Assembly (NCBI GenBank): GCA_965203325.1
Contig: OZ241875.1
Span: forward strand, 2,176,001 to 2,240,000
Source of the DNA: a bacterium
GTDB lineage: Bacteria; UBA8248
DNA length: 64,000 bases
Direction of reading: 5' to 3'
In this document: piece after piece, positions 58,959 through 64,000 of the stretch
How positions within the stretch are numbered: the stretch's first letter is position 1
Layout of the letters: every line of letters starts with the position of its first letter
Notes under the pieces: model-generated
What the model saw: only the letters and a program-made list of their open reading frames with translations
The model's database searches: none
Told to the model about the DNA's origin: nothing
Position numbers and translations under genes: made by a program

Positions 58959-60209
58959 TCAATCTTCCAAGGGAATTCCAATCTCCGATCTGGGTTTCGG
59001 ATCTGAGACCACATTATCTCGAATCAACTCTTCTATTGTTTCATCACTCCACCCTAGAATTTCGGACAACACTTCGCGTGTATGCTCCCCGTGCAAGGGG
59101 GCCGGCCCTTGCACCTTCCCCGGCTGCTCGGAAAATTTCGGGGGAACACCGGTAGTGTTCACTCTACCCAGAAGCGAATGGTTCGTTTCCACCACCATCT
59201 CTCTGTGGCGAACCTGCTCATCCTCGAGCGCTTCGCCGACATCATAAACCGGGCCGCAGGGAATCCCTTTTTCCTCCAGTAATTTCAGCCATTCATTCCC
59301 GTCCCGTCTGCAGAGATACCGCTCCAATATGGGGATGAGCTGATCGCGATTTTTCGCCCGGTTGGGTATGTCGACGAACCTCGGGTCATTCGTCAGTTCA
59401 GGGGCCTCGATGATGTCACAGAAATAACCCCAGAACCGATCGCTCGTCACACCGATGATGATTTCCTTATCCTTGGCCTTAAGCGCCTGATAGGGGACGA
59501 TTTGAAAATGGGCCGAACCCCACCGCTCGCTCATACTGCCATCCATGAAATAGCAGCCGCTCAGGTTGGTGAGCAGCGACACGCTGCTGTCGAGAAGAGA
59601 CAGATCGATGTATTGCCCCCTGCCCGTCTTCTCCCTGGCGAACAATGCGCTGCTTACGCTGTAAGCCGCCCACATGCCCGCCGTGAGGTCGCTGAGCGGA
59701 ACCCCGGCCTTGCAAGGTCCGCCGTCCGGTTCGCCCGTTGCGCTCATGATGCCGCTCATCGCCTGTCCGACGATGTCAAAACCCGAGCGTTCCCGATACG
59801 GGCCCGTCTGCCCGAAACCGGAGACGGAAACGTATATCAGTCGGGGGTTCAGGGCGGACAACGCCTCATACCCGACGCCCAGGCGCTCCACGACGCCGGG
59901 GCGAAAATTCTCGACAAACACGTCCACCTTTTTTGCAATGGCGCGGGCGACCTCGAGGCCTTCGCTTTTTTTGAGGTCGACCACGATACTCTTCTTTCCG
60001 TGGTTCACACCCAAAAAATAGGCGCTCTCTCCTTTCTTGAACGGAGGTCCCCAGGTGCGGGTTTCATCGCCGTTTCCGGGAGATTCGAGCTTGATGATTT
60101 CCGCGCCCAGATCGGAGAGCATCGTGGTGCAAAAAGGCCCGGCGAGAATTCGGGACAAGTCCAACACGCGAATTCCCTTCAATGGTCCCTGTGCGTTCAT
60201 CATCCCCAT
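58959..60209 (-). CDS. CaiB/BaiF class III CoA-transferase
   Basis: PLKGIRVLDLSRILAGP, GDETRTWGPP, ENFRPG, GFGQTGPY. Confidence 0.93.
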   Translation of the reverse strand: MGMMNAQGPLKGIRVLDLSRILAGPFCTTMLSDLGAEIIKLESPGNGDETRTWGPPFKKGESAYFLGVNHGKKSIVVDLKKSEGLEVARAIAKKVDVFVENFRPGVVERLGVGYEALSALNPRLIYVSVSGFGQTGPYRERSGFDIVGQAMSGIMSATGEPDGGPCKAGVPLSDLTAGMWAAYSVSSALFAREKTGRGQYIDLSLLDSSVSLLTNLSGCYFMDGSMSERWGSAHFQIVPYQALKAKDKEIIIGVTSDRFWGYFCDIIEAPELTNDPRFVDIPNRAKNRDQLIPILERYLCRRDGNEWLKLLEEKGIPCGPVYDVGEALEDEQVRHREMVVETNHSLLGRVNTTGVPPKFSEQPGKVQGPAPLHGEHTREVLSEILGWSDETIEELIRDNVVSDPKPRSEIGIPLED

Positions 60210-60464
60210 CCTGAGTAAAAGCCAAGAAGATTTTTGCGAATGTATAGAATGTGCAAAGGCGCGGGGCTGTCTGTCAAGGAATCTTGATGAAATTCTACGC
60301 GCTCTTCCCGGCATCGGGACAATGGTTAAAACCGTCTTCGCAAGTTCTCCCGGACGTGGCCGACGTGAAGGGCAAACTCCAGGGCCCCGCTCTCGCGGGG
60401 GATCAATTCTCAAAATGTGAGCGCCTGGCTCATGCGATGCGCCATCCAGTCATGACGAAAATTT

Positions 60465-61493
60465 TCAGGCGGAAAAATGCTCCCAGGCAAGATTTTTCAG
60501 CGCGAAAACCCCGTCTGCGCGTTTGAGAGAAATTCCCTGTGAGGCCGGCAGGATTTCTCCGACGGGCGTAAGCGGCGCCGCGCCCCCCCGCCGGAGGACT
60601 TCCTGAAGCGGACGAACGGATTCAGGGGGCGTCGTGACGAGAAGTTCGTAGTCTTCTCCACCGTGCAGCGCCCACTCACTGGGCTTTTTCTCGGCGAGCG
60701 AGGCTGCTTCGAGCAGGGTATTGGAGACGGGCAATGCGGATTCCCGGAGGAGCGCGCCTGCCCCACTCGCCTCGCACAGATGGCGGATATCGCCCGCCAG
60801 ACCATCGCTGATGTCCATCATGGAGGTCGCCAGCCCTGATTCCGCGATAGCTACCCCCTCCGCAACCCGGGGCTGCGGTTCCAGCTGCGCGCGGGTGAGT
60901 GAGGCATACAAGTCTTCCCGGACTCGGACTTGAGACCCGGATAATAAATGAAGTCCCGCTGCGGCATCTCCCAGATACCCCGTCACCAGAATCCGGTCCC
61001 CCGCTCTGGCGCCGCTTCGGCGAAGCACCTTCTCTTCCATCATCTCGCCGACGAGGAACACGTCGACGAACAAAGGACCACTCGTACGCGTCACGTTTCC
61101 CCCCAAAACCAAAATGTCGTACTGCTCCGAGAGCGCGCGAACCCCGCCATACACGTCATCCAGAAACGAAACGGACGTCTCTTCGGGTATGCCCAGCGAG
61201 ATGAGCGCGAAGCGAGGCTTGCCCCCCATGGCCGCCACATCGCTCACGTTCACCGCCAGCGACTTGTAACCCGCGGCGAAACCGGAAACATCCCCCGTAG
61301 ACGGGAAATGCACGCCGCTTACTTGCGCATCGCACGTCACGACCCAGCATTTTCCATCCCCCGCCTTGATGACGGCCGCATCATCCCCGTTGCCGACGAT
61401 GACGTCCGCGCTGTTCCCCACCAAGCCGAGTTTGTTTCTCAGGCGTTCTATGAGGGCGAACTCGCCAATCTCTCTCGCTGTATCGCCATTCAC
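60465..61493 (-). CDS. thiL: Thiamine-phosphate kinase
   Basis: GEFALI, GDDAAV, NVSDVAAMGG, MDISDGL, GGEDYELL. Confidence 0.95.
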   Translation of the reverse strand: MNGDTAREIGEFALIERLRNKLGLVGNSADVIVGNGDDAAVIKAGDGKCWVVTCDAQVSGVHFPSTGDVSGFAAGYKSLAVNVSDVAAMGGKPRFALISLGIPEETSVSFLDDVYGGVRALSEQYDILVLGGNVTRTSGPLFVDVFLVGEMMEEKVLRRSGARAGDRILVTGYLGDAAAGLHLLSGSQVRVREDLYASLTRAQLEPQPRVAEGVAIAESGLATSMMDISDGLAGDIRHLCEASGAGALLRESALPVSNTLLEAASLAEKKPSEWALHGGEDYELLVTTPPESVRPLQEVLRRGGAAPLTPVGEILPASQGISLKRADGVFALKNLAWEHFSA

Positions 61494-62134
61494 CCTTTCG
61501 CCCTCTCGATGCGATTGCGCAACTCCCTGGTCGCAACTCCCGGGTCGGACGCTCCCATCACAGCGCCGATAACGGCGACGCCGGAGGCGCCGGCTTCGAT
61601 GACGGGCTCCACGTTCTCGATACCGATTCCCCCGATGGCGACGGCGGGCAAGCCGGGGGCGTGTTCGATAATCCGCCGGAATCCTTCCGGCCCGATCGGC
61701 GTTCTCGCATCAGCCTTACTCCCCGTCGCATATACAGGGCCTACGCCGATATAATCCGCATCCTCGGCGGCGGCCCGCGACGCCCATTCGGATTTTCCGG
61801 CTGTAACGCCATAAAACAACGTATCTCCCGCCATCGCCCTGGCCCTCGAAATCGGAAAATCCTCCTGCCCCAGATGCACCCCGTTCGCGCCACAGGCCAT
61901 GGCGACATCCACCCGATCATTCACCGTAAAAGCGCAGCCGGTTCCTTCCAGAACCTCTCGCATTTCATCCGCCAGGCGAATCATCTCCACGCCGCTCAAG
62001 TTTTTCTCTCTAAGCTGGATCATACCGGCCCCGTTCGTCGCGGCTGCCCGAACCGCGTCCCTCAATTTCCACCCGGAAACCTGGGACAATATCTCCCGGT
62101 CGGTGATGACTGTCAGCGACAGGTCGAATTTCAT
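61490..62134 (-). CDS. thiE: Thiamine-phosphate synthase
   Basis: IQLREK, NDRVD, GVHLGQED, GPVY.T.SK, AIGGI. Confidence 0.95.
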   Translation of the reverse strand: MKFDLSLTVITDREILSQVSGWKLRDAVRAAATNGAGMIQLREKNLSGVEMIRLADEMREVLEGTGCAFTVNDRVDVAMACGANGVHLGQEDFPISRARAMAGDTLFYGVTAGKSEWASRAAAEDADYIGVGPVYATGSKADARTPIGPEGFRRIIEHAPGLPAVAIGGIGIENVEPVIEAGASGVAVIGAVMGASDPGVATRELRNRIERAKG

Positions 62135-62325
62135 GGGTCCCCCGATCAATCAAGAGCGAAACTACGATATTGATAATGAAACACTAGCATCATTAGAGGC
62201 AACGGCAATCCATGTCGGGGAATGTGTTCATCGATACGAGAAAACTTCCAAAGTTATGGAGCGTCTCTCTTGCGTAATTCTCCTGTGCTTGAGAACCTCT
62301 TCCCCCATCATCAGAGGAGGACGCC

Positions 62326-62925
62326 ATGAGCTGGATTCAGCCCATTTCCCCGGATGCCGCGGAGGGGGCCGCAAAAGAAATCATCGATGACCTGCGCAAG
62401 GCAGGAAAACCCATTCCCGGGATGTTTCTCGAGATGGGCAGGAGGCCCGATATTCTGGCCGGGCGTGAAACGCTCCGCCGCGCCGTTCATGGCGGCTCGA
62501 GCCTTGGTACTAGACGGGCGGAGCTCCTCGCTTTCTACGTGGCGGCTCACGGGGGGTGATACGGCTGAGCGATGAACCACGGGCAGTTGTTCCGTGACGA
62601 ATGCGATGACGCATCCATCGCCGAAGTAGCCGAGGTACTGGACGACCCGAAGCACGCGGGAATCCTCGACTCAGCGGACCGCACCATGCTCGCCTATGCG
62701 GAGAAGTTCACCCACACGCCTCACTCGATGAAAAAAACGGACATCGAAAGTCTGAGGGCCGCCGGCTTCAGCGAGGAGAGCATCGTGGACATTATCGCGG
62801 CCGTCTCCTACAGAAACTTCGCCAACTCGATCAACTACGCCTTCGGGCACGTGGAGCAAAATCCCGAAGGACCGAAAGAATTGCAGGATGCCATCGAGAG
62901 GTTGAAAAAGAAAATACGTGGCTGA
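62326..62925 (+). CDS. AhpD/CMD-like peroxidase-related protein with two in-frame TGA codons (candidate UxxU selenoprotein, 199 aa)
   Basis: ORFs 62326-62559 and 62572-62925 share a frame; junction GGG GGG TGA TAC GGC TGA GCG ATG AAC CAC gives G-G-U-Y-G-U-A-M-N-H at the position of the family CxxC..H motif; GGAGG RBS before 62326. Confidence 0.8.
62578..62596 (+). promoter_or_regulatory. Candidate bacterial SECIS hairpin
   Basis: CACGGG-C-AGTT-G-T-TCCGTG stem-loop starting 9 nt after the second TGA, with GU in the apical loop. Confidence 0.5.
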
Positions 62926-63661
62926 CAAATCACAATCCCTCTCATCAATATCGTATGTGGGTCTATTCATATCGGGTGCTTGCGCGCTGGTCGCCGTGGC
63001 GTCGGGCCTGGGCCATCGCTGGGAACTGTGGCATTTCAGCACGGGGTTCCAGATTTTCAAGTCCGCATCCGTCATCGCTCTCATCTCCGTCGCCGTCTCC
63101 ATGGCGGGTGGCTTGTTCGCTTTGCGAGACGCCTCCAGGCTCAAGACGCTGGCCGCCGCGCTCGGCATCGCACTCGGCTTCATCGTTGCGGGCTTTCTTC
63201 ACGCGCACATGCAGATCGCGAGACGGGTGCCCAAGATTCACGACATCACGACGGACACCCGGAATCCGCCCGCCTTTCAAGCCGTTCTCACGCTCAGGAC
63301 AGGGGCGAAGAACCCGCCCGCCTATGAGGGGGCGCGTATCGCGCGGCTCCAGAAAAAAGCGTATCCGGATATCAAACCACTTATTTTCCAAACTTCAAAA
63401 GAAGAAGTTTTCAAGCGCGCCCAGGATGCCGCGCACGCAATGAGCTGGCATGTGGTGTCGTCCAAACCAACCGAAGGACGCATCGAGGCCTATGACACGA
63501 CCTTCTGGTACGGCTTCATCGACGATATCGTCATACGGATCACGTCGAGCAGCGGAACGACGCGCCTCGACATCCGCTCGAAATCCCGCGTCGGCGTCGG
63601 CGACATCGGTGCGAATGCCAGACGAATTCGCGGATTTTTCGAGAAACTGAAAGTAAGATAG
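62918..63661 (+). CDS. DUF1499-family membrane protein
   Basis: N-terminal TMs, PKIHDITTD..NPP.F, Q..AYPDI.P, GRIEA...T.WYGF.DD, RSKSRVG.GD.G.NA.RI; overlaps the end of the AhpD-like gene. Confidence 0.85.
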   Translation: MADKSQSLSSISYVGLFISGACALVAVASGLGHRWELWHFSTGFQIFKSASVIALISVAVSMAGGLFALRDASRLKTLAAALGIALGFIVAGFLHAHMQIARRVPKIHDITTDTRNPPAFQAVLTLRTGAKNPPAYEGARIARLQKKAYPDIKPLIFQTSKEEVFKRAQDAAHAMSWHVVSSKPTEGRIEAYDTTFWYGFIDDIVIRITSSSGTTRLDIRSKSRVGVGDIGANARRIRGFFEKLKVR

Positions 63662-63733
63662 ACTCTGGTGTCTAATATTCATCGACGGGATTCACCATGA
63701 GACGATGCCTTGCACAAGGTGATGAGGGGTGAC

Positions 63734-64000
63734 ATGCCCGAATATCAGGTTCTGGGCAAATCCATACCGAGACTCGACTCCGCAGAGAAGGTCTCCGGAT
63801 ACGCCGATTTCGGCGATGATTTGAGAAGATCCGGCTGTCTCACTGCGAAATTGCTCCTGAGCCCGCACTCCCACGCCGAGATCAAGAAAATCGACACCAC
63901 CGATGCCTTGAAGGTTCCCGGCGTACACGCCATCGTCACGGCGGATGATTTTTCCGGTATCCGCCACGGCAGGCTCGTGCGCGATGAACCGCTGCTCGCC
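63734..64000 (+). CDS. Xanthine dehydrogenase-family molybdopterin-binding subunit, 5' part (runs off the window)
   Basis: Own translation: MPEYQVLGKSIPRLDSAEKVSG.A.F.DD...LLSPHSHAEIKKIDT..A..VPGV..IVT..D. Confidence 0.85.
   Translation, partial: MPEYQVLGKSIPRLDSAEKVSGYADFGDDLRRSGCLTAKLLLSPHSHAEIKKIDTTDALKVPGVHAIVTADDFSGIRHGRLVRDEPLLA

Follow-up and report, generated by a model that had tools for sequence, protein, structure and literature searches.

The gene studied here lies towards the end of the window, by which we mean the whole 64,000-nucleotide stretch of DNA that was analysed. A single plus-strand frame, evident from the sequence and its translation with TGA read as selenocysteine (Sec, U), runs from an ATG at 62326 to a stop TGA at 62923-25 and contains two in-frame TGA codons, at 62557-59 (codon 78) and 62566-68 (codon 81), with TAC GGC between them. 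Genetic code table 11 cuts this frame into a 77-aa ORF (62326-62559) and a 117-aa ORF (62572-62925). An earlier reading of this DNA, made from the letters only (hereafter the sequence-only reading), had described just such a split by the ORF caller, and the frame is as it was reported. The features of the locus are as follows.

62314..62321, plus strand: Shine-Dalgarno-like GAGGAGGA, 4 nt 5' of the ATG (read from the sequence; putative role)
62326..62925, plus strand: predicted full coding sequence of a UxxU AhpD-like selenoprotein, 199 codons and a TGA stop (TIGR01926, PDB 6k40, 24 orthologs, dN/dS)
62557..62559, plus strand: UGA 1, codon 78, predicted Sec, on the first Cys of CxxC (alignments)
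62566..62568, plus strand: UGA 2, codon 81, predicted Sec, on the second Cys of CxxC (alignments)
62578..62596, plus strand: candidate SECIS hairpin H1 (alifold consensus of 24 UxxU genes)
62923..62925, plus strand: true stop codon, TGA in the window and TAA in most orthologs (ortholog extraction)
62918..63661, plus strand: DUF1499 membrane-protein gene; its start, a GTG, overlaps the selenoprotein stop (Pfam PF07386, 88.7 bits)
58959-60413, 60465-62149 and 63710-64000: family III CoA-transferase gene; thiL and thiE (thiamine phosphate synthesis, opposite strand, upstream); start of an aldehyde oxidase/xanthine dehydrogenase-type subunit gene

The DUF1499 gene is adjacent in 20 of the 24 loci that carry the UxxU gene. 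We considered it as an obligate partner and rejected the idea, as it is kept in three genomes without the UxxU gene (G001, G006 and G008) and is missing from the loci of a second genus (g2). The UxxU genes of g2 (L047, G035:C45) are flanked by a TauE/SafE-type exporter gene and a gene with an FGE-sulfatase domain.

The read-through protein passes the NCBIfam model TIGR01926 ('peroxidase-related enzyme') only when C is put in for U, and then by a margin of only 1.6 bits (83.4 bits vs a cutoff of 81.8), the match spanning residues 2-178 of the 178-position model. The AhpD/peroxidase-related affiliation proposed by the sequence-only reading is thereby borne out at the level of that profile. The score against Pfam PF02627 (CMD) stays below the gathering threshold (20.5 bits vs 23), a likeness at the superfamily level only, and the models NF053654 (YciW-related (seleno)protein, 35.5 bits vs a cutoff of 310) and NF041238 (AhpD_rel_CFYUT (seleno)protein, 21.4 bits vs a cutoff of 175) are both far from being reached. 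Searching the PDB with phmmer gave 6k40 (E 1.9e-15), 2oyo (3.8e-13) and 3c1l (1.4e-09), and in all three alignments U78 and U81 fall on both Cys of CxxC, as had been anticipated, and H85 falls on the conserved His. The redox centre of AhpD-like (TIGR01926/COG2128) proteins is worded as the motif E-x11-CxxC-x3-H; E66, U78, U81 and H85 have this same spacing, with H85 invariant and E66 at least 90% conserved among 23 aligned orthologs. An AlphaFold2 model made from 23 orthologs (pLDDT 83, pTM 0.76) is all-helical, with ten helices, and places U78 and U81 at the N-terminus of helix 79-92. Its best Foldseek matches are 6k40, 2prr, 2pfx, 3c1l and 2oyo (TM 0.57-0.66, E 1e-6 to 1e-5), and the fold, as modelled, is the all-helical one of AhpD/CMD proteins. 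The best solved relative, DR1765 of Deinococcus radiodurans (PDB 6k40, Foldseek TM 0.62/0.66), is about 27% identical to the window protein and has Cys, not Sec, at the CxxC aligned with UxxU. In the account that the review PMC8945050 gives of it, the DR1765 mutant is H2O2-sensitive and its complementation is CxxC-dependent.

Related genes were sought by six-frame search, in 61 related genomes first and then in 51 genomes of the phylum. The UYGU form is present in 24 of the 51 phylum genomes at 52-100% protein identity: 19 of 23 in the window's genus (the window genome and 18 more), the single genome of another genus (g3) and four of five in g2. All 24 orthologs read HGG-U-Y-G-U-A-[MVI]-NHG, and none has a frameshift or further stop. 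A pattern scan of metagenome contigs returned 89 matches, of which 80 were fetched; 73 proved to be chance matches and seven homologs, all seven with UYGU. Codon 78 is thus TGA in 24/24 genome orthologs and 7/7 metagenome homologs, whereas the first-position codon of the sister and distant CxxU genes is either TGC (7) or TGT (3); codon 81 is TGA throughout the alignment of 34 UxxU and CxxU sequences. Scanning genome contigs with patterns and a C-terminal alignment gave 18 loci, all in MAGs titled Nitrospinota, Nitrospinaceae or 'bacterium', and the same kind of scan with a full-length alignment, in which the patterns spanned the Cys/Sec codons, gave no matches. Two distant matches with '2 TGA' (in G028 and G025) were considered as UxxU genes and rejected, being CxxU (CFYU) with the second TGA outside the motif.

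Relaxed selection downstream of the TGAs had been named in advance as the mark of a pseudogene. Over the 19 genus-level genes (Nei-Gojobori, 171 pairs), dN/dS is 0.123 for codons 1-77 vs 0.153 for codons 82-199, so that the downstream part is as constrained as the upstream part. Sequencing error had likewise been raised, and both TGAs are retained in independent assemblies and contigs: a contig from an independent DNA run covers both with no listed change, and contigs X18 and X19 from two RNA libraries span both unchanged, these last showing presence and not being proof of transcription (sequencing runs with a word share below 0.2 were not counted as evidence). The gene is real and conserved, and purifying selection acts on it both before and after the TGAs. 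For contrast, a decayed copy is found in genome G009, where an in-frame deletion has removed residues 14-114 and joined residues 1-13 to 115-199. This remnant occurs twice, on two contigs (L058, G009:C4:126500-128200; L059, G009:C5:835300-837000), each time adjoining an intact DUF1499 gene.

The window genome also carries a CxxU paralog (G000 C1:3808702-3809277, L025) with CYGU in place of UYGU and hence one TGA rather than two. This paralog is 48% identical to the UxxU gene, of equal length and present in nearly all the same genomes, but its neighbours are luciferase-like monooxygenase and metallo-beta-lactamase-fold genes, not DUF1499. UxxU orthologs and CxxU paralogs, both of which the sequence-only reading would have sought in related genomes, are therefore found there, with conservation on either side of the TGAs. 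The hairpin of the paralog clade also differs, having a GCUUUC/GAAAGC stem and a loop 24 nt from the UGA, and overlaps the position of H1. A maximum-likelihood tree separates the eight close CxxU genes, as a single clade with support 100/99, from the 24 UxxU genes. Rooting this tree with distant CxxU sequences failed, as the outgroup branch exceeds 4 changes per site, and the root is unsure. Since all other family members encountered in this analysis have CxxU or CxxC, a passage from CxxU to UxxU is the parsimonious one; with the root unsure, parsimony makes it most likely that the UxxU gene arose from a CxxU ancestor after duplication, for which a single TGY-to-TGA change is enough.

Recoding of UGA as Sec depends on a dedicated machinery, and the earlier proposal had been made to stand or fall with it. 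In the window genome, a single contig of 4.39 Mb that is 95% complete, selA (571 bits), selB (393 bits), selD (333 bits) and tRNA-Sec (selC, 75.9 bits) all score over curated cutoffs, and selA and selB are near each other. Its lone tRNA-Sec is 97 nt long with an 8-bp acceptor stem (ARAGORN). Matches to tRNA-Sec over the cutoff are present in 39 of 42 family genomes, and two strong matches, with equal scores, in only two of the 42 (G014 and G035). The selD gene contains one in-frame TGA (G000 C1:1726679-1727641, L011, minus strand), and its product, selenophosphate synthetase, is probably itself a selenoprotein.

No tRNA(ReC) candidate was found in the window genome with RF01852, ARAGORN or the Rfam tRNA models, and the sub-threshold RF01852 matches there are ordinary Tyr, Ser and Leu tRNAs. 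One ARAGORN call, a 'tRNA-Cys(aca)' of 95 nt (G000 C1:3497434-3497528, minus strand) with mismatched stems and no CCA, was considered as a tRNA(ReC) and rejected, as it folds poorly and is absent from the Rfam tRNA-model matches. ARAGORN also called six tRNA-Ala(cgc) in this genome, where its tRNA total is 55 vs 47 by the Rfam tRNA model; the odd calls, tRNA-Cys(aca) and tRNA-Ala(cgc), are probably false positives or derived from repeats.

Immediately downstream of the two UGAs lies the candidate SECIS hairpin H1. In the window its stem has 7 bp and a single bulged U, its apical loop is AGUU (62585-62588) and its MFE is -7.6 kcal/mol; the hairpin overlaps the codons of His85-Gly86 and Phe89-Arg90. 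Its loop is 16 nt from UGA 2 and 25 nt from UGA 1. Run on 34 sequences, RNAalifold returned as its sole structure a 5-bp core in which the His-Gly codons pair with the Phe-Arg codons, and the consensus in the 24 UxxU genes has 7 bp, the bulged U and a loop of AGUU, GGUC or GUC. The alignment cells of H1 are paired in 91.4% of cases, vs 24-48% when the partners are slid. Synonymous differences between genes of the genus drop to a fraction of 0.06 over codons 81-90 and 0.09 over codons 86-95, against 0.18-0.40 outside codons 76-100. Arg90 is encoded by CGT in all 19 genus-level genes and in 33 of the 34 aligned sequences, CGT making up 12% of Arg codons genome-wide (2,498 long ORFs).

The bSECIS consensus, as set out in the Fig. 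2 legend of PMC13188914, has a loop of 3-9 nt with a G within its first two positions, a stem of 4-16 bp, a distance of 16-37 nt from the UGA and an MFE <= -7.5 kcal/mol. H1 in the window falls within these limits of loop, stem, spacing and MFE for both UGAs, the G being second in the loop and followed by U, with the 16 nt to UGA 2 being the shortest distance that the published range allows. The threshold of -7.5 kcal/mol is reached in 16 of the 20 distinct UxxU sequences, the other four being weaker. Distant CxxU relatives carry H1 in a stronger form of 9 bp, 17 nt from their UGA, and such a spacing therefore works in this lineage. Covariation in H1 does not rise to significance (the observed score is matched by 48 of 500 shuffles, and only one pair changes on both sides) because the stem sits in codons for conserved residues. 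When four stretches about the TGAs and the true stop were folded as single sequences, the best z was -1.49, with 12 of 200 shuffles as good; folding against shuffles found no significant RNA structure 3' of the true stop, and an Rfam scan of 61500-64000 with E up to 10 returned chance matches only and no SECIS family. Two other hairpins, ACGGCUG/CAGUUGU spanning UGA 2 and AUGCG-AUGA-CGCAU at 62602-62615, were dropped as they are not conserved in the orthologs. Positional conservation together with suppressed synonymous change suggests that H1 is the SECIS, and this single element probably serves both UGAs.

How else might the two TGAs be explained? Table-11 calling gives two pieces, and all 24 public protein homologs in a collection of 5.8 billion clusters are C-terminal fragments of 117-118 aa, the two named records among them both being entered as 'hypothetical protein'. 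Such fragments are what standard annotation had been expected to produce from a two-Sec gene, but they also favour a pseudogene, a sequencing error or two small genes of 77 aa and 117 aa. Neither decay nor error fits the facts that 24 genomes share these two TGAs, in proteins of 52-100% identity and free of frameshifts and further stops, that dN/dS is low on either side of them and that independent contigs agree, and the truly degraded copy in G009, with its internal deletion of residues 14-114, looks different. As for two genes, the 117-aa piece would have to start at Met83, for which g2 and g3 have Val or Ile (codons GTC, GTA, GTG, ATT), and Met83 is therefore not a conserved initiator. We consider these explanations highly improbable and, as far as comparative data allow, refuted; the argument that two TGAs on both catalytic Cys positions are better explained by Sec recoding than by nonsense mutations now has behind it their conservation in 24 genomes, the low dN/dS and the Sec machinery. 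Selenium could also gate expression, the UGA pair acting as a leaky terminator such that the full-length protein would be made only with plentiful Sec-tRNA and an N-terminal fragment of 77-80 aa would be made otherwise. Two successive Sec insertions should multiply the inefficiency of UGA recoding, which counts for such gating, as does the spacing of UGA 2 at the edge of the consensus range. Gating of this kind would, however, modify dual Sec insertion rather than replace it, and since the C-terminal 118 codons are constrained (0.153) and bear half of the AhpD fold, including His85, selection acts on the full-length product. We judge it very unlikely to be the explanation of the locus.

It could further be that only UGA 2 encodes Sec and that a tRNA of the tRNA(ReC)/SelC* type, or near-cognate read-through, places Cys or another residue at UGA 1 (or at both UGAs), giving a product that is functionally CxxU or CxxC. 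In favour of this, tRNA(ReC)-like genes are enriched in genomes with UxxU hydrogenases, where one or both UGAs may mean Cys according to the part of a 2026 study that deals with them (PMC13582414). The window genome, however, has a single tRNA-Sec besides sub-threshold matches that are Tyr, Ser and Leu tRNAs, its 'tRNA-Cys(aca)' folds poorly and is not among the Rfam tRNA-model matches, and the two family genomes with a second strong tRNA-Sec match are exceptions in which both score equally. Were UGA 1 read as Cys, drift between TGA and TGY would moreover be neutral, yet TGA is kept in 24 genome and seven metagenome copies; as CxxU relatives vary between TGC and TGT at this position, we argue that UGA 1 does not stand for Cys. 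Reading of UGA 1 as Cys thus appears unlikely.

The reading we prefer, at a probability of roughly 0.8 from sequence evidence, is one intact 199-residue AhpD-like gene in which both redox Cys are replaced by UGA-encoded Sec (U78-Y-G-U81). SelB with Sec-tRNA(Sec) bound to the single hairpin would decode UGA 1, with the loop 25 nt away, and three codons on a second SelB complex would decode UGA 2, with the loop 16 nt away. By analogy with other AhpD-fold CxxC proteins, the product may be a dithiol-type reductase or peroxidase. In it U81 would make the nucleophilic attack and U78 would resolve, so that on oxidation an intramolecular diselenide would form in place of a selenylsulfide. This assignment of nucleophile and resolving roles is modelled on work on mycobacterial AhpD. 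The loop of H1 is 25 nt from the upstream UGA, close to the 24 nt in the CxxU paralog, which has just one UGA, and the hairpin may have been re-registered in this lineage to the new upstream UGA. We would give about even odds to the further proposal that one short SECIS programmes two Sec insertions three codons apart, by way of such a re-registered hairpin, and thereby yields the first diselenide redox centre in an AhpD fold.

The window gene has a clear place among known selenoproteins. The AhpD-like selenoprotein family ('AhpD-like 1' of the GOS and Sargasso Sea surveys) shares with it the HMM family, the fold and the E-x11-CxxC-x3-H centre and, as here, has Sec at the second motif position and a SECIS directly downstream; its first motif position is Cys, whereas in the window gene this position is also UGA. 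In their entries for COG2128/TIGR01926, PMC9312934, PMC13188914 and PMC2398784 catalogue the AhpD-like family only as CxxU, with one Sec, and full-text literature searches found no description of a UxxU AhpD-like protein. The UxxU gene is a new form of this known family, the family entries in the catalogues of 2022 and 2026 having CxxU only. Elsewhere in bacteria, UxxU is listed in a table of PMC13188914 for a Prx-like thiol:disulfide oxidoreductase, the metal-binding NF041115 and the FmdB family, and UxxU Group 4 [NiFeSe] hydrogenases were described in 2026 (PMC13582414); for such proteins it has been proposed that one downstream SECIS serves both UGAs. Those proteins resemble the window gene in having two UGAs three codons apart in place of CxxC and differ from it in having a thioredoxin/Prx fold or a role in metal ligation, none of them being of the AhpD/CMD fold.

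A eukaryotic counterpart is SelL, reportedly characterised by Shchedrina et al. in 2007 as a UxxU selenoprotein with a diselenide bond, a thioredoxin-like fold and a SECIS in the 3'-UTR. What it has in common with the window protein is a UxxU redox motif expected to form a diselenide; the window protein, being AhpD-like and all-helical, does not have the thioredoxin-like fold, and the resemblance is one of working alike only.

MAGs labelled Nitrospinota/Nitrospinaceae (GTDB UBA8248) are among those with the richest selenoproteomes according to the BSepDB paper, and they probably represent the lineage of the window gene. The text of that paper's supplement makes no mention of AhpD, UxxU or UBA8248, and the window gene may be listed in BSepDB.

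The AhpD-like proteins make up one of the most abundant selenoprotein families of bacteria, and a conserved UxxU AhpD form would be a second fold, besides the thioredoxin-like one, with a diselenide-capable pair. The UxxU gene, its CxxU paralog and their differing hairpin registers would together provide a natural test of whether one bacterial SECIS can serve two UGAs nine nt apart. If the reading with two Sec is true, the two paralogs in one genome form a matched pair for asking how SelB and the ribosome handle closely spaced UGAs, and one that would also show what a diselenide gains over a selenylsulfide. Finally, unless two-UGA read-through is modelled, selenoproteome counts for this selenium-rich, sponge-associated marine lineage may be underestimates.
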